Assembly: GCA_035402805.1 (NCBI GenBank)
Contig: DAONDY010000002.1
Coordinates: 149,963-213,962, forward strand
DNA: 64,000 nt
Reading direction: 5' to 3'
Source: Candidatus Woesebacteria bacterium
GTDB taxonomy: Bacteria; Patescibacteriota; Microgenomatia; UBA12405
Under the pieces are notes generated by a model. It searched no databases. It saw only the letters and a program-made list of their open reading frames with translations, and was not told the origin of the DNA. Positions 5,509-9,319 of the stretch are shown one piece after another. Position 1 is the stretch's first letter. Each line of letters begins with the position of its first letter. Both the position numbers and the translations under genes were made by a program.

Positions 5509-8163
5509 ATGACTAATACAAAAAAATACGTCTATTTTTTCGGTAATGGAAAAGCTGAAGGCGACAAGGATATGAAATATATTCTTGGCGGTAAAGGTGC
5601 TAATTTGGCAGAAATGACCAATTTGGGAATTCCAGTACCGGCAGGTTTTACTATTTCAACAGAGGTATGTCAATACTATTATAGTAATGGCAAAAAATAT
5701 CCAACTGAATTGAAAGGGGATGTAGAAAAAGAAATTGCTCGTTTAGAAGAAAGCACTGGTAAAAAATTTGGTGATGATAAAAATCCATTATTGGTTTCAG
5801 TTAGATCTGGAGCAGCGGCTTCAATGCCAGGAATGATGGATACTATTTTAAATTTAGGTTTAAATGAAAAAGTAGTCGAAGGAATGGTTGAGAAAACTGG
5901 CAATGCCCGATTTGTTTGGGATTCTTACCGACGTTTTATTCAAATGTACTGCAATGTAGTAGAAAATATGGAACATGAAAAATTGGAACATGTGATTAAT
6001 ACTGTCAAGGCAGAAAGAGGAATTAAGGAAGATACAGCCATGACAGCTGAAGATTGGCAAAAGGTGGTTAGAGGCTATAAAGAAATTTATAAAATTGAAA
6101 AAGGACACGATTTTCCAAGTGATGCCAATGTTCAACTTTGGGGAGCAATTGATGCTGTTTTTGGTTCTTGGAATAATCCAAGAGCAATTATTTATCGTCA
6201 ATTAAACAAAATTGATGAGAAAAAAATCTTTGGAACTGCAGTAAACATCCAATCAATGGTGTTTGGTAATATGGGTGATGATTGCGGAACTGGAGTAGCT
6301 TTTACTCGTAATCCTTCAACTGGAGAAAATGTAGCCTATGGAGAATATCTAATGAATGCCCAAGGTGAGGACGTAGTGGCAGGAATTAGAACTCCAAAAA
6401 AGCTCGATTCTCTAAAAGAAGATAATGAAACTGTTTATAAAGAATTAATTGCTATTTTTGATAAATTAGAAAAACATTATAAAGATATGCAGGATGTGGA
6501 ATTTACCATTGAAAATGGTAAATTGTTTGTTCTTCAAACCAGAAATGCTAAAAGAACCGCTCCAGCTATGGTCAAAGTAGCAGTTGATTTAGTTAGTGAG
6601 GGATTGATTGATGAAAAAACAGCATTAGTGAGAGTTGAAGCTGACAAACTTGATCAATTGCTTCATCCAACTTTGGATCCAAAGGAAAAATCTAAATTCC
6701 AATTAATCACTAAAGGTTTACCAGCATCTCCAGGTGCAGCTTCTGGACAAGTTGTTTTTAACGCTGAAACTGCAGTTGAATGGGTGGAGAATGGTAAAAA
6801 AGTAATTTTAGTTAGAGCCGAAACTTCTCCTGAAGATATTGCCGGAATGAACGTAGCGGCTGGTATTTTAACGGCTCGAGGCGGAATGACTTCTCATGCA
6901 GCTGTGGTGGCTCGAGGTATGGGCCGATGTTGTGTGGCTGGTTGTGAAGCTTTAACTGTAATGGAAAGTTCTAAAATATTCAAAGTAGGTGATATTGAAG
7001 TCAAGGAAGGTGATTTAATTACTTTGGATGGAAGTGCTGGTGAAGTCTTCTTAGGTAAAGTACCAACTATGGAAGCTCAATTAAATGATGATTTTGCTCA
7101 ATTGATGAAATGGGCAGATAAAACTCGAAAATTGGGAGTCAGAACTAATGCTGATACTCCAAAAGATGCTAAAACAGCTCGAGAATTTGGAGCTCAAGGT
7201 ATTGGTCTTTGTCGAACTGAACATATGTTCTTTGAAGAAGATAAAATCTTTGCTATTCGACAAGTGATTATTTCAGATACTCTTGAACAGAGAGAAACCG
7301 CTTTGGAAAAAATCTTCCCCATGCAAAAAAATGATTTCAAACAGATATTTGAAATTATGGAAGGTTTACCAGTCAAAATTCGTTTACTTGATCCACCTTT
7401 ACACGAATTTGTACCTCATGAAGACAAAGATATTGAGGCTTTAGCAAAAGAAATGGGAATTTCTTTTGAAAAATTGAAAGAAAAAGTAATATCTCTACAT
7501 GAAGCTAATCCAATGATGGGTCATCGTGGTTGTCGACTTGGTGTTACTTTCCCAGAAATTAATCAAATGCAAGTGAAAGCTATTATGAGTGCCGCTTGTG
7601 AATTGAAGAAAGAGAAAAATGCTGAGATTGTTCCAGAAATTATGATCCCATTAATTGCTGATGTAGAAGAATTAAAATGGCTTAAAGCTAAATTGATTCC
7701 AGTTATCGAAGAAACCATGAAATCTTATGGTGTTACTTTGAAATATGAAATTGGAACCATGATTGAAATTCCAAGAGCAGCAGTAACTGCTGATGAAATT
7801 GGGACTGAAGCTGATTTCTTCTCTTTTGGAACTAATGATTTGACTCAAATGACCTATGGGTTCTCTCGTGATGATGCGGGAAAATTCATTAAAGATTATA
7901 TGAGAGAAAAAATCTTAGTTGAAGATCCGTTTAAAAGTGTTGACCAAAAAGGTGTTGGTAGACTAATGGAAATGGCAGTGAAACTTGGTCGAGATGGTAA
8001 TAAAGATCTTAATATTGGTATCTGTGGAGAACAGGGTGGAGATCCAGATACAGTTAAATTCTGTCATAGAATTGGACTAAATTATGTGTCTTGCTCGCCT
8101 TACCGAGTACCAATTGCTAGATTGGCGGCAGCACAAGCGGTGGTTGAAGAAATGAAGAAATAA
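5509..8163 (+). CDS. ppdK: Pyruvate, phosphate dikinase (884 aa)
   Basis: PEP-utilising phosphohistidine motif GGMTSHAAVVARGMG, C-terminal TIM-barrel motifs (RTEHMF, GTNDLTQ), N-terminal ATP-grasp region. Length typical of PPDK. Confidence 0.92.
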   Translation: MTNTKKYVYFFGNGKAEGDKDMKYILGGKGANLAEMTNLGIPVPAGFTISTEVCQYYYSNGKKYPTELKGDVEKEIARLEESTGKKFGDDKNPLLVSVRSGAAASMPGMMDTILNLGLNEKVVEGMVEKTGNARFVWDSYRRFIQMYCNVVENMEHEKLEHVINTVKAERGIKEDTAMTAEDWQKVVRGYKEIYKIEKGHDFPSDANVQLWGAIDAVFGSWNNPRAIIYRQLNKIDEKKIFGTAVNIQSMVFGNMGDDCGTGVAFTRNPSTGENVAYGEYLMNAQGEDVVAGIRTPKKLDSLKEDNETVYKELIAIFDKLEKHYKDMQDVEFTIENGKLFVLQTRNAKRTAPAMVKVAVDLVSEGLIDEKTALVRVEADKLDQLLHPTLDPKEKSKFQLITKGLPASPGAASGQVVFNAETAVEWVENGKKVILVRAETSPEDIAGMNVAAGILTARGGMTSHAAVVARGMGRCCVAGCEALTVMESSKIFKVGDIEVKEGDLITLDGSAGEVFLGKVPTMEAQLNDDFAQLMKWADKTRKLGVRTNADTPKDAKTAREFGAQGIGLCRTEHMFFEEDKIFAIRQVIISDTLEQRETALEKIFPMQKNDFKQIFEIMEGLPVKIRLLDPPLHEFVPHEDKDIEALAKEMGISFEKLKEKVISLHEANPMMGHRGCRLGVTFPEINQMQVKAIMSAACELKKEKNAEIVPEIMIPLIADVEELKWLKAKLIPVIEETMKSYGVTLKYEIGTMIEIPRAAVTADEIGTEADFFSFGTNDLTQMTYGFSRDDAGKFIKDYMREKILVEDPFKSVDQKGVGRLMEMAVKLGRDGNKDLNIGICGEQGGDPDTVKFCHRIGLNYVSCSPYRVPIARLAAAQAVVEEMKK

Positions 8164-8179
8164 TATTTCTTTGAGATTA

Positions 8180-8205
8180 AAAAAGCCCCCGAAAGGGGGC
8201 TTTTT
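8180..8205 (+). terminator. Rho-independent terminator aaaaagcccccgaaagggggcttttt after ppdK
   Basis: Perfect 7-bp GC stem plus T-run, seen in sequence. Confidence 0.8.
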
Positions 8206-8210
8206 AAATA

Positions 8211-8231
8211 GGGCGACCACAAGAGTCGCCC
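8211..8231 (+). repeat. REP-like GC-rich hairpin gggcgac-cacaaga-gtcgccc immediately upstream of the RayT-like transposase gene
   Basis: Seen in sequence. Same gggcga...tcgccc stem type as the two hairpins inside the transposase ORF. Confidence 0.55.
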
Positions 8232-8253
8232 ATACACATGATAATATAATTGT

Positions 8254-8841
8254 ATGTATTATCACAGAAGATCGATTAGATTAAAGGGATATAATTATTC
8301 ACAAAATTGGTTTTATTTTGTAACCATATGTGCCAAAAATAGAGGTAATGTTTTTGGTGAAATTGTAGGGGCGAGGCGTGACTCGCCCTTAATTAATAAA
8401 AATAATATATTTGCAAACGATCTGAATAGTAATTTATTCGAAATGAAATTAAATCAAAATGGGGAAATTATTGATGAAATTTGGAAATCATTATCAATTC
8501 ATCATAATGTAATTTTGGATGAATTTATTATTATGCCAGACCATATACATTTTATTTTGGTAATTAAAAATGACTTAAATAAAAATCAAAATAAATTGGA
8601 AAATAATGAAAATTTGATATTAAAAAATAATAATAAGGGCGAGTCACGCCTCGCCCCTACATTAGGGTGGATTGTTGGAATTTTTAAAACAGAATCAACA
8701 AAACGAATTAATAAATTAAATGAGACGCCAAAAATTCAATTATGGCAACGCAATTATTATGAAAGAGTTATTCGTAATGAAAAAGAGTATTTGATGATTA
8801 AAAAATATATTAGAGATAATCCAAAAAATCTAGGTTTATAA
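8254..8841 (+). CDS. RayT-like (REP-associated) Y1 HUH transposase of the IS200/IS605 superfamily (195 aa)
   Basis: N-terminal YHRRSIRLKGYNYSQ..YFVTICAKNR signature of TnpA-REP proteins. HUH motif MPDHIHFIL. RAPTLG-like motif SRLAPTLGWIVGIFK. C-terminal catalytic Tyr region QRNYYERVIRNE. Confidence 0.8.
   Translation: MYYHRRSIRLKGYNYSQNWFYFVTICAKNRGNVFGEIVGARRDSPLINKNNIFANDLNSNLFEMKLNQNGEIIDEIWKSLSIHHNVILDEFIIMPDHIHFILVIKNDLNKNQNKLENNENLILKNNNKGESRLAPTLGWIVGIFKTESTKRINKLNETPKIQLWQRNYYERVIRNEKEYLMIKKYIRDNPKNLGL
8361..8675 (+). repeat. Perfect 28-bp inverted repeat pair (tgtaggggcgaggcgtgactcgccctta at ~8361-8388 and its reverse complement at ~8648-8675), each itself a gggcgag/ctcgccc hairpin, lying in-frame inside the transposase ORF and bracketing the HUH motif
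   Basis: Seen in sequence by reverse-complement comparison. Confidence 0.75.
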
Positions 8842-8848
8842 TTGTCTT

Positions 8849-9319
8849 ATGAATATACAAGATTTAAAAGAATTCATTTTAGAAGCGAATGGGAAGGGAT
8901 ATGGAAGTGGGGAACAAAAAACAAGAGAAAAACAAGAAGATGGGTCGACGACGATTAAATATCAAAACGGAGATTGGAAAATGGTTGACAATTATGTGGG
9001 TGGGGAGCCGTATGCAGGAATGACAAAAATATTTTTTCAAGACAAAGTGGTGTGGTCAATGGTTTATTATGGATTGGTCGATAAAAAAGTTGAGGGTTTT
9101 AAAGATGTTTATGGTTTTTTAATGAAATCACTTTTGCAAATGCCCTCCGATTACCCTTATCGAGGTCCTAGGGAATTTGTTGAAGAAGAGTGGAAATATA
9201 ATAATGATTGGAGTGGGGAAGTGGAAGAATTTAATGGGGAGGAAAAAATTTATTTTAAAAATGAAATGATTTTTTGGACAAAATATATTGGCGGGGTGGT
9301 GGATGTGAGAGAAGAATAA
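8849..9319 (+). CDS. Hypothetical protein (156 aa), acidic/aromatic-rich, no recognisable motif
   Basis: ORF track. Tight spacing (8 nt) after transposase gene. Confidence 0.4.
   Translation: MNIQDLKEFILEANGKGYGSGEQKTREKQEDGSTTIKYQNGDWKMVDNYVGGEPYAGMTKIFFQDKVVWSMVYYGLVDKKVEGFKDVYGFLMKSLLQMPSDYPYRGPREFVEEEWKYNNDWSGEVEEFNGEEKIYFKNEMIFWTKYIGGVVDVREE

Follow-up and report, generated by a model that had tools for sequence, protein, structure and literature searches.

REP Elements in RAYT Genes

[quoted passage not shown] This TnpA_Y1 subclass (PMC6006769) is identical to RAYT group 4 (Bertels et al. 2017, PMC5581495). [quoted passage not shown] In subclass 2.4, W, Q and R of the block that contacts the GTAG tag are well conserved (PMC6006769). 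A REP is described by a 5' GT[AG]G tag at 0-2 nt from a fully paired stem of 7-20 bp, which encloses a loop of 2-5 nt (Quentin 2018, PMC6006769). Intragenic palindromic insertions add 8-30 residues to proteins at tolerated positions (Di Nocera et al. 2013, PMC3733652).

We analyzed a 64-kb stretch of DNA from Candidatus Woesebacteria (referred to as the window), which contains a single RAYT gene. Two REPs are in frame within this gene. In-gene REPs of subclass 2.4 were already published in 2018, and the gene from the window is a further case. It adds a little to the published picture: a second REP site ahead of the HUH motif, arms that change in concert (at least 8 cores) and no other REP in 64 kb. 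The features are as follows (positions in the window).

8176-8209, + strand: terminator-like hairpin of ppdK (AAAAAAGCCCCCGAAAGGGGGCTTTTT), an inverted repeat and the left edge of the RAYT unit
8208-8236, - strand: degenerate third REP, reading GTATGGGCGAC-TCTTGTG-GTCGCCC, with the tag GTAG decayed to GTAT and the orientation of arm 2
8254-8841, + strand: gene for a RAYT/TnpA_REP-type Y1 HUH nuclease of 195 aa (Pfam, NCBIfam, 4ER8, Foldseek)
8364-8391, + strand (coding strand): arm 1, REP copy 1, GTAG tag and hairpin with core 8365-8388, encoding VGARRDSP (aa 38-45)
8539-8553, + strand: HUH motif D96-H97-I98-H99-F100, with H97 and H99 invariant in alignment A1
8634-8661, - strand (template strand): arm 2, REP copy 2, GTAG tag and hairpin with core 8637-8660
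8743-8778, + strand: block W164-Q-R-N-Y-Y-E-R-V-I-R-N175, from the HMM alignment to residues 90-123 of 4er8_A
8806-8823, + strand: Y motif YIRDNP (aa 185-190), with Y185 matched to the first Tyr of DYIYINP in 4ER8

The RAYT Protein

The ORF codes for a Y1 HUH nuclease of the RAYT/TnpA_REP type. This was already assumed in a preliminary description based on the sequence, and it is borne out. Pfam PF01797 scores 26.4 bits (cut-off 23), and the family profile matches 4ER8 (TnpA_REP), with the best stretch reaching only 21 bits, a weak sequence similarity. When the AF2 model (pLDDT 76) was compared to the PDB with Foldseek, 30 matches were obtained at E <= 0.001. The top match is 4er8_A, followed by IS200/IS605-type Y1 transposases (IS200, ISDra2, IS608, Sulfolobus tokodaii, DR_0177). 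The score for NCBIfam REP_Tyr_transpos (equivalog NF047646) is 48.7 bits, which is under the cut-off of 80 and counts against the RAYT identity. The Y---NP motif of RAYT class 2 is present (YIRDNP).

The string YY..VIRNE had been taken for the catalytic motif, which has to be corrected. Its counterpart in 4ER8 is the WQ...E..R block, which includes the residues labelled as binding GTAG. The Y motif of the subclass is YIRDNP with Y185. Within the block, W164, Q165, Y169, E170, R171 and R174 align to W94, Q95, W99, E100, H101 and R104 of E. coli TnpA_REP, and the latter are labelled around the GTAG tag in Figure S11 of Quentin 2018 (PMC6006769). N189 aligns to N119 of E. coli TnpA_REP, which is named essential in the literature. 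The HuH-Y distance (H97 to Y185) is 88 aa. The partner of Y185 in 4ER8 is Y115 (counted from chain residue 90), which is reportedly the catalytic tyrosine (Messing et al. 2012).

More than 7,900 homologs of the protein were found, and the one with 100% identity carries the name Candidatus Woesebacteria. A scan of a genome collection returned almost only distant homologs, from outside the candidate phyla radiation; these are from Cyanobacteria, Chloroflexi, Chlorobiaceae and Bacteroidota. The HuH motif is DHIH in the window and in the closest relatives; it is NH[IV]H in many of the homologs in A1. Judged by motifs, length and taxon range, the protein appears to fit subclass 2.4/group 4.

A Perfect Inverted Repeat Within the Gene

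A repeat search of the window identified the arms at 8364-8391 (TGTAGGGGCGAGGCGTGACTCGCCCTTA) and 8634-8661 as exact reverse complements. Each arm has 28 nt with 100% complementarity, and the arms are separated by a spacer of 242 nt. Both are in frame within the ORF and flank the HUH motif. The perfect inverted repeat of 28 bp around the HUH motif, as announced in the preliminary description, is thus real, but the positions given (~8361-8388 and ~8648-8675) were off by 3 nt and 14 nt. The repeat was not encountered in 100 shuffles (0 matches), and the expected number of such inverted repeats within 600 nt, anywhere in the window, is about 6e-9. Each arm by itself also forms a 7-bp GGGCGAG/CTCGCCC hairpin, as described before, with a DNA free energy of -8.3 kcal/mol. 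When read on the coding strand, arm 2 encodes GESRLAPT (aa 129-136).

Invertible switches classically have inverted repeats on both sides of a functional core, and REPINs are thought to move as units. It might be supposed that the HUH-coding segment is inverted or lost through recombination or RAYT cleavage, so that the gene is switched off and on, but we consider this highly improbable. The spacer encodes the conserved core that is common to all Y1 transposases, and in all of the 14 homolog genes that were inspected (14/14), the ORF is intact and the orientation unchanged. Inversion was rejected because the inverted 242-nt spacer gives multiple stop codons, and REPIN-like excision was rejected because a deletion from arm to arm (298 nt) shifts the frame.

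REP Features of the Arms

Each arm consists of a GTAG tag, a perfect GC stem of 7 bp and a loop of 6 nt (GCGTGA). Tag and 7-bp stem fit the REP descriptor, while the 6-nt loop is one base over the range of 2-5 nt. The arms are GC-rich within an AT-rich gene, as had been noted, with a GC content of 0.73 (73%) compared to 0.22 (22%) in the remaining gene; the GC3 values are 0.69 and 0.17. In six close homologs, a stem pair is changed from A-T to C-G at both partners. This change forces the replacement of S by A at site 1, and of E by A and L by R at site 2. The arms are genuine GTAG-tagged REPs. They are DNA elements rather than protein motifs.

The reverse assignment, with the peptides being selected and the inverted repeat incidental, is extremely improbable. 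It can draw on the sequence A-P-T-L-G after site 2, which is near-invariant in the family (A1). SRLAPTLG had been called conserved, and this holds for its APT-LG part; the residues G-E-S-R-L are dictated by the REP and become G-A-S-R-R when the stem changes. Thus, residues change in pairs as base pairing demands (E/L to A/R, S to A). In addition, at least 8 unrelated peptide pairs are found at the same sites, the partners being reverse-complement translations, and both segments have rare GC-rich codons and low pLDDT values.

According to the AF2 model, the site of arm 1 is a loop between predicted strands 35-38 and 63-66. The block-mean pLDDT is 85 for residues 31-40, 51 for residues 41-50 and 47 for residues 51-60, with values under 50 at residues 47-58. 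The segment is missing from more distant homologs (A1), in agreement with the suspected insertion relative to typical RayT proteins. The site of arm 2 is the end of the beta3/alphaC linker (aa 109-131, pLDDT <50), with a helix (137-156) next to it. Its sequence is hypervariable in A1, and the model shows it as disordered. Both REP-encoded peptides are thus predicted to be in low-confidence loops of the structure.

According to the preliminary description, its reading would be refuted by orthologs lacking the DNA palindrome, together with an absence of similar hairpins elsewhere. This refutation fails, since orthologs carry the palindromes and the REP family is found elsewhere, though not in other parts of the window. 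The description had also proposed a synonymous-site comparison. In a set of six close homologs, 10 of 13 degenerate codons in the REPs are invariant, compared to 38 of 73 outside, and this is not significant (p = 0.13). The AT-biased gene has too little synonymous variation for such a test. Therefore, the DNA-level argument uses the compensatory changes and the composition. One of the REP codons counted as variable in this test is an alignment artefact in L201.

The two arms are the only GTAG/GTGG hairpins with a stem of 7 or longer in the 64 kb. The window was searched with the exact stem pattern, with a 24-mer allowing 3 mismatches and by tagged and untagged hairpin scans, and these revealed no further REP beyond the gene and an upstream relic. 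Similarly, the 13-20 kb around the close homologs L203, L117 and L205 contain no other REP of the arm family. A REP population of this enzyme is therefore hypothetical in this lineage. On metagenome contigs, in contrast, the arm-type REP pattern has 154 matches, and 140 of the 154 are outside RAYT genes. Although the search pattern allowed mismatched combinations, the varying stem pair is complementary in all matches (154/154). Some matches are in frame in genes for PolyA_pol, Queuosine_synth and formyl-transferase, and VGARRDAP and GASRRAPT are examples of REP-encoded peptides that recur in frame in ordinary genes of metagenome contigs. The REP family of the arms is dispersed on metagenome contigs. 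The suggestion that the GGGCGAG hairpin represents a REP family found elsewhere thus holds on metagenome contigs but not within the 64-kb window.

The Upstream Region

REPs with a GT[AG]G tag are expected within about 1 kb of a RAYT gene. Here, there are two GTAG hairpins inside the gene and a decayed one (GTAT) upstream. The latter has the GGGCGAC...GTCGCCC hairpin at 8211-8231, 22 nt ahead of the ATG, and had been reported before at a distance of 23 bp. It has a DNA free energy of -8.6 kcal/mol (z = -6.8). Its 7-nt loop (TCTTGTG) is that of the REP inside the L205 homolog, and identity to this in-gene REP is 24/34, compared to 12/34 for the REP of the window itself. In the ortholog L201, this third REP is shortened to ATAGGGCGA.

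The RAYT gene is directly downstream of ppdK in the window and in L205 (PPDK 94% identical), and ppdK is also upstream of the RAYT gene in L200, L201 and L202. The terminator-like hairpin (AAAAAAGCCCCCGAAAGGGGGCTTTTT) also precedes the RAYT gene in L201, L202 and L205. A terminator scan called only the minus-strand copy (8198-8186) of the ppdK hairpin and no site on the + strand. A promoter scan returned 7 sites, with 5.4 expected. An Rfam scan of 8000-9000 at E <= 1 gave nothing near any gathering score; therefore, no known RNA family applies.

Concerted Change of the Two Arms

In the window and in L200, L201, L203, L205 and L208, the arms are perfectly complementary over 25-29 nt, although these six genes have four different core sequences. 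L205 carries a different core (GTAGGGGCGGGTCTTGTGCCCGCCC) at both sites, which again results in a perfect inverted repeat of 28 nt. In L208, a loop variant (GCTTGA) is mirrored in both arms. At the protein level, 22 of 120 homologs have peptides at site 1 and site 2 that are encodable by an inverted repeat with 23 or more perfectly paired nt, compared to 0/120 in shuffled controls. These 22 homologs span at least 8 different cores, and they are half of the homologs with a site 1 REP (22/44). The comparisons indicate a concerted evolution of the arms, with eight or more different cores involved.

Such concerted change could mean that the long-range stem of 28 bp is selected as such, in mRNA or single-stranded DNA, where it would enclose the HUH-coding segment and might inhibit translation (autoregulation) or label the gene for the enzyme it encodes (self-recognition). 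Upon RNA folding of 8340-8685, this stem dominates both the minimum-free-energy and the centroid structure (-91 kcal/mol, z = -7). Complementarity has been kept in the six genes in spite of their four cores, and the L208 change affects a loop which the local hairpin does not need. We nevertheless regard selection of this stem as rather unlikely. A whole sister clade (L207, L141, L171, L102, both L186 genes, L191, L196 and L140) stably holds two cores that differ between the sites, GGGTCGG..CCGACCC and GGGCGCG..CGCGCCC, and both are perfect local hairpins. L202 has mixed arms. In most family members outside this clade, REPs are restricted to the HuH-Y loop, where they often form a self-complementary "double-foot" palindrome. 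Furthermore, neutral quasi-palindrome correction or gene conversion would equally make the arms identical. The 28-bp stem is thus not the conserved unit; in the sister clade, each site retains a perfect hairpin of its own.

A minus-oriented GTAG hairpin is found between HuH and Y in 61 of 97 homolog genes. For the CTAC foot, 43 genes use the APT frame and 18 a different one, with the PL frame in 17. With the foot in more than one frame, the data do not support that all family members inherited site 2 from a single ancestral insertion. Site 2 is a hot spot of indels and duplications. L205 was also considered as a mosaic RAYT that arose by a cassette swap bounded by REPs. However, the right-hand boundary is not at REP 2, and the "type B" center has a subclade of its own (P0103, P0048, P0051); the mosaic is therefore given as a mere observation.

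The REPs might also be selfish, neutral passengers in two permissive loops, having no role for the RAYT and being free of constraint at the DNA level. We assign some, if limited, probability to this. The low-confidence loops and the same REPs in frame in unrelated housekeeping genes are as expected for passengers, and so are the instability of site 2, the outcome of the synonymous-site test and the differing frames of the CTAC foot, which suggest repeated insertions. On the other hand, position, frame and perfect hairpins are retained in homologs down to 62-65% amino acid identity, and stem changes are always compensated. Also, the REPs persist in genomes with ~33% GC, in a gene with an otherwise low GC3 (0.17), and at loci without visible copies that could re-seed them.

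Proposed Explanation

We consider it likely that the window codes for a RAYT of subclass 2.4/group 4 with two in-frame, oppositely oriented copies of its presumed cognate REP, which are DNA elements that the protein tolerates. Of the two readings in the preliminary description, this favors the invasion of the gene by a REP pair that left the frame intact. In-frame REPs are a published property of subclass 2.4 (PMC6006769). According to the model, one REP site would be in a beta-hairpin loop before helix A and the other in the variable beta3/alphaC linker. The perfect inverted repeat of 28 nt would then be due to one REP variant that is present at both sites at this time. The concerted change of the arms may result from gene conversion or template switching, acting between near inverted repeats, or from RAYT-mediated copying.

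By analogy to other RAYTs, a folded single-stranded REP would be bound through its GTAG tag and cut at the adjacent CT. If this applies, each DNA strand of the enzyme's own gene would provide one bona fide substrate. The gene with its REPs may then be viewed as a compacted REPtron in which a REP "seed" is physically linked to the enzyme. Translation might be damped by mRNA structure as a side effect.

It is tempting to go one step further and to speculate that, in this RAYT clade, a single ORF has come to hold both the enzyme and the only REPs on which it acts, the arms around the HUH core being actively kept identical through at least eight different cores, including unpaired loop positions. 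Such a putative self-regulating REPtron is unlikely. If it exists, there would be RAYT-driven copying from arm to arm, or a selected stem of 28 bp would let the enzyme sense or throttle its own gene. This would be a self-contained, self-regulating REPtron in genomes that are otherwise devoid of REPs.

With the likely explanation, a RAYT with two copies of its presumed cognate REP, a striking sequence oddity is attributed to a documented property of a RAYT subfamily. With the paired coevolution of its arms and the apparent lack of nearby REPs, this lineage offers a compact natural system to study the use of REPs by RAYTs and a possible cis action of in-gene REPs.

Comparison with Known Systems

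IS200/IS605 TnpA is likewise a Y1 HUH enzyme; it acts on single-stranded DNA hairpins with a guide tetranucleotide 5' of the hairpin, as is presumed for the enzyme from the window. In IS200/IS605, the hairpins are at the ends of the element and outside of tnpA, whereas they are within the gene here. The Y motif is Y---Q there and Y---NP here (PMC6006769). IS200/IS605 elements are multicopy, while the gene reported here occurs once in the window and is directly downstream of ppdK also in L205.

In-frame palindromes in coding genes are shared with intragenic REPs and Rickettsia palindromic elements (Di Nocera et al. 2013, PMC3733652). In our case, the host gene is that of the presumed mobilizing enzyme, and the sites are fixed and conserved across many homologs.

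The E. coli REPtron (4ER8) is similar with respect to the fold, the GTAG-tagged hairpins, the single-copy gene (one copy in the window) and the inverted REPs around the catalytic gene. W, Q, E and R of the GTAG-contact block of E. coli TnpA_REP are kept, but Y169 and R171 are found in place of W99 and H101. REPs from E. coli number in the hundreds, flank the gene and have a bulged stem; those of the window are located within the coding sequence, as hairpins with a perfect 7-bp stem.

REPINs are short noncoding doublets which occur in many copies. They also consist of two inverted REPs with arms that stay complementary through evolution (Bertels & Rainey 2011, PMC3116915). Here, the 242-nt spacer codes for the HUH core, the pair occurs once in the window and excision would destroy the gene.

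The closest relation is to subclass 2.4, from which there are several differences. The host is Candidatus Woesebacteria. A literature search found no RAYT or REP paper linked to Patescibacteria or the candidate phyla radiation; therefore, the RAYT from the window may extend the known host range. The motifs DHIH and YIRDNP deviate from the consensus of the subclass (NH[IFV]H and YIxNNP), and both count against the assignment. The beta1-alphaA region, ahead of HuH, contains a further in-frame REP, whereas the paper lists no insertion in this region for subclass 2.4 (PMC6006769). The REPs form an inverted pair with coevolving arms, and flanking or dispersed REPs were not seen in 64 kb, except for the decayed upstream relic. 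In other respects, the locus resembles the subclass. The protein shares the length (~194 aa), WQ, Y---NP and the lack of a C-terminal extension. It has a long variable beta3/alphaC linker, a region in which short DNA repeats also occur in subclass 2.4, and its HuH-Y distance of 88 aa equals the subclass median (88). The REPs are of the GTAG type, with three G-C pairs at the base of the stem, and arm 2 (aa 129-136) is at the published position of in-frame REPs.

The Inverted Repeat and Its RAYT Gene

A perfect 28-bp inverted repeat had been described preliminarily within a gene for a RAYT (TnpA_REP, a REP-associated Y1 HUH nuclease), in frame and around the HUH motif. It is present, with small shifts in the coordinates. 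The features in the window are as follows.

8211-8231: third hairpin (GGGCGAC...GTCGCCC), 22 nt before the ATG, just past the terminator-like hairpin of ppdK
8254-8841, + strand: RAYT ORF, 195 aa
8364-8391, + strand: arm 1, TGTAGGGGCGAGGCGTGACTCGCCCTTA, 28 nt, within the ORF
8539-8553, + strand: HUH codons, flanked by both arms
8634-8661, - strand: arm 2, 28 nt, 100% complementary to arm 1, within the ORF

The arms are 242 nt apart (repeat search) and have 73% GC (22% in the rest of the gene). Each alone forms a hairpin (-8.3 kcal/mol, DNA) whose stem, GGGCGAG/CTCGCCC, has 7 bp and whose loop has 6 nt. That the repeat is far beyond chance is upheld: shuffled sequences never yielded the pattern, and about 6e-9 such inverted repeats are expected by composition.

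A database protein 100% identical to the RAYT is annotated as Candidatus Woesebacteria, and there are >7,900 homologues. The Pfam Y1_Tnp match is slightly above cut-off, while the NCBIfam RAYT model (48.7 bits, cut-off 80) stays under it. A profile built from 33 homologues matches 4ER8 (the E. coli TnpA_REP structure), and Foldseek with the AlphaFold model (pLDDT 76) gives 4er8_A as best hit, followed by IS200/IS605-type Y1 transposases. In the HMM alignment, W164-Q-R-N-Y-Y-E-R-V-I-R-N175 corresponds to the 4ER8 block of W94, Q95, W99, E100, H101 and R104, which is labelled around the GTAG tag in Figure S11 of Quentin 2018 (PMC6006769), and Y185 in YIRDNP corresponds to the tyrosine motif DYIYINP. 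The segment YY..VIRNE, initially taken as catalytic, is therefore the tag-recognition block and not the tyrosine motif.

CATGATAATATAATTGT (8237-8256) abuts the ATG. Its sequence is conserved in L201, with a similar form in L203 and L202 (L numbers denote loci with homologue genes or REP matches). It holds a -10-like box 4-8 nt from the start codon and leaves no space for a Shine-Dalgarno sequence, so that the RAYT mRNA may be leaderless. A DUF5680 gene (PF18931, E = 2e-26; 8849-9319) starts 8 nt past the stop codon; L200 and L205 have a 100-aa gene in its place. GC skew is positive in all 2-kb bins (1-64000); thus, the window belongs entirely to one replichore, and the RAYT gene has the orientation of the G-rich strand.

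The Arms as REPs

Each arm opens with GTAG, followed by a GC stem that has three G-C pairs at its base, which is the canonical REP layout (Quentin 2018, PMC6006769). Six close homologues (amino-acid identity 62-82%), aligned by codon, have two stem variants, GCGAG...CTCGC and GCGCG...CGCGC, and every A-to-C change is accompanied by T-to-G in the partner. This paired change costs amino-acid replacements, S to A at site 1 (ahead of HUH), and at site 2 (between HuH and Y) both E to A and L to R. An explanation as protein motifs is contradicted by these paired replacements and by the diversity of the peptide pairs. To judge from the sequences, the arms are REPs. A synonymous-site test of DNA-level constraint was not significant.

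A metagenome pattern scan tolerated non-complementary combinations at varying stem positions, and these were complementary in 154/154 matches. Only 14 of the 154 are in or beside RAYT homologues; the other 140 are on contigs with 33-69% GC. Because these lie outside RAYT genes, some of them in ordinary genes, the REP family, whose existence the preliminary description had left to be checked, is real and dispersed, though not within the window: hairpin and pattern scans of the 64 kb found no canonical GTAG hairpin other than the two arms. The ordinary genes with in-frame REPs encode proteins of the PolyA_pol/CCA-adding type, Queuosine_synth, a formyl transferase and a TPR protein. Their contigs have 35-44% GC, and inserted peptides include RASHDSPLQ and VGARRDSP.

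In-frame REPs in ordinary genes (position in the spanning ORF)
L153: aa 79
L143: aa 268
L128: aa 251
L104/L151: aa 111/131

No further REPs were seen in 13-20 kb around L203, L117 and L205. Several further ones occur at L186, L140, L102 and L207, most of these loci having been found through the REP itself.

Position in the Protein

In the AlphaFold model, VGARRDSP (aa 38-45) belongs to the loop joining strands 35-38 and 63-66, and GESRLAPT (aa 129-136) ends the linker past the HUH strand, directly ahead of helix 137-156. Block-mean pLDDT is 85 (31-40), 51 (41-50) and 47 (51-60), and values are <50 in segments 47-58 and 109-131. The first arm had been suspected to lie in an insertion relative to other RAYTs, and the alignment agrees: more distant homologues wholly lack the site 1 segment and have V-D-G in its place.

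On their interior sides, both REPs are flanked by N/K-rich stretches of low complexity and highly variable length. Site 2 is a hot spot of duplications and indels. L117 has CAGGGCGCGTTGGAAAATAATAAT (NNNQGALE) as three tandem 24-nt copies directly 5' of the full site 2 REP, and each copy has a partial REP foot at its start. In L201, 18 nt are inserted past the first GCCCCTACA, ending in a second, imperfect foot copy (CCAACA). Homologue protein P0012 reads GASRRIVEGASRRAPT in this region.

Concerted Evolution of the Two Arms

The extra in-frame REP ahead of HUH, in + orientation, results in an inverted REP pair that brackets the catalytic core. This arrangement is found in a candidate-phyla-radiation-like clade (window, L117, L200-L203, L205, L207, L208, L141, L171, L102, L186, L191, L196/L140) and sporadically elsewhere (L056, L010).

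Evolution is concerted between the two arms. Both sites carry the A/T variant in the window and L200, and the C/G variant in L201, L203 and L117; in L208, a loop change from GCGTGA to GCTTGA is present in both arms. In L205, whose RAYT gene is directly downstream of ppdK and whose PPDK is 94% identical to that of the window, both sites hold GTAGGGGCGGGTCTTGTGCCCGCCC, a 25-nt core of entirely different sequence, which again makes a 28-nt perfect repeat. For 22 of the 120 best homologues, the site 1 and site 2 peptides could be encoded by a perfect inverted repeat >=23 nt long, with at least 8 different cores (shuffled controls: 0/120).

Arm identity is not obligatory, the perfect long-range repeat being a frequent rather than a required state. 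L202 has mixed arms, and throughout a sister clade, site 1 holds GGGTCGG..CCGACCC and site 2 holds GGGCGCG..CGCGCCC, both forming perfect hairpins locally; for these reasons, we consider the local REP hairpin to be the conserved unit. In the mRNA, the 28-bp stem would form on thermodynamic grounds by folding prediction and could damp translation. The sister clade, devoid of perfect arms, argues against a long-range stem as the selected feature. A switch by inversion or excision is improbable, as inversion introduces stop codons and arm-to-arm deletion a frameshift.

RAYT genes of two types occupy the same position downstream of ppdK in genomes with 94% identical PPDK (compared: L205:7282-10543, window:5509-8841, and L200). 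L200 and L205 are 100% identical in the C-terminal 28 aa and 78% in the N-terminal 37 aa; the centre (REP 1 to WQ motif) is ~40% identical by eye between the types, and the REP core differs, a pattern suggestive of recombination or allele replacement. The upstream hairpin (8208-8236, - strand) shares its 7-nt loop, TCTTGTG, with the REP of the L205 type (type B), to which it is 24/34 identical (12/34 to the window's own REP). Its tag has decayed to GTAT, and the L201 orthologue has just ATAGGGCGA left there. When read in antisense, arm 2 with TATTATTTTT after it (8633-8660, - strand) fits the intrinsic-terminator consensus and could stop antisense transcription into the RAYT gene.

According to published biochemistry on other RAYTs, the folded single-stranded REP is bound with its 5' GTAG and cut at an adjacent CT or CA; the complementary strand (iREP) was neither bound nor cleaved in the two systems tested there. 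By analogy, the window enzyme would bind the folded REP via GTAG and cut at the neighbouring CT/CA. Since there is exactly one REP per gene strand (arm 1 on +, arm 2 on -), both followed by C-T-T, we read the locus as a putative compacted REPtron (a RAYT gene plus its REPs). Homogenisation of the arms might proceed by template switching or gene conversion between close inverted repeats, or by RAYT-mediated copying. The gene carries two presumed cognate REPs in tolerated loops, retained with compensatory changes and often homogenised. The observation reported initially stands; its interpretation, as a self-recognition or autoregulatory structure or an invading REP pair, does so only in part.

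Comparison with Subclass 2.4

As described by Quentin, Siguier, Chandler and Fichant 2018 (PMC6006769), TnpA_Y1 subclass 2.4 (Bertels' group 4) comprises proteins of ~194 aa with the motifs NH[IFV]H, WQ and YIxNNP. HuH and Y are 88 aa apart (median), and the beta3/alphaC insertion, which varies in length and sequence, contains short DNA repeats. In-frame REPs in these RAYTs are known since that paper, whose description of the subclass gives no beta1-alphaA insertion. The window protein appears to fit (195 aa, WQ, Y---NP, H97-Y185 = 88 aa, no C-terminal extension), with two deviations: DHIH instead of NHIH, and YIRDNP as the Y motif. Its homologues occur in Chloroflexi, Cyanobacteria, Chlorobiaceae, Bacteroidota and others, which broadly matches the published ranges, group 4 being common in Cyanobacteria, Chlorobia and Caldilineae (Bertels et al. 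2017, PMC5581495). Of 97 homologue genes surveyed, 76 contain GT[AG]G hairpins or have them <=400 nt away, and 61 have a minus-oriented hairpin, often a "double-foot" palindrome, in the HuH-Y interval. The window gene is a new Candidatus Woesebacteria member of a described kind, RAYTs of the subclass 2.4 type that contain in-frame REPs, to which it adds modest extras: a second REP site, co-evolution of the two REPs and a genome that seems poor in REPs.
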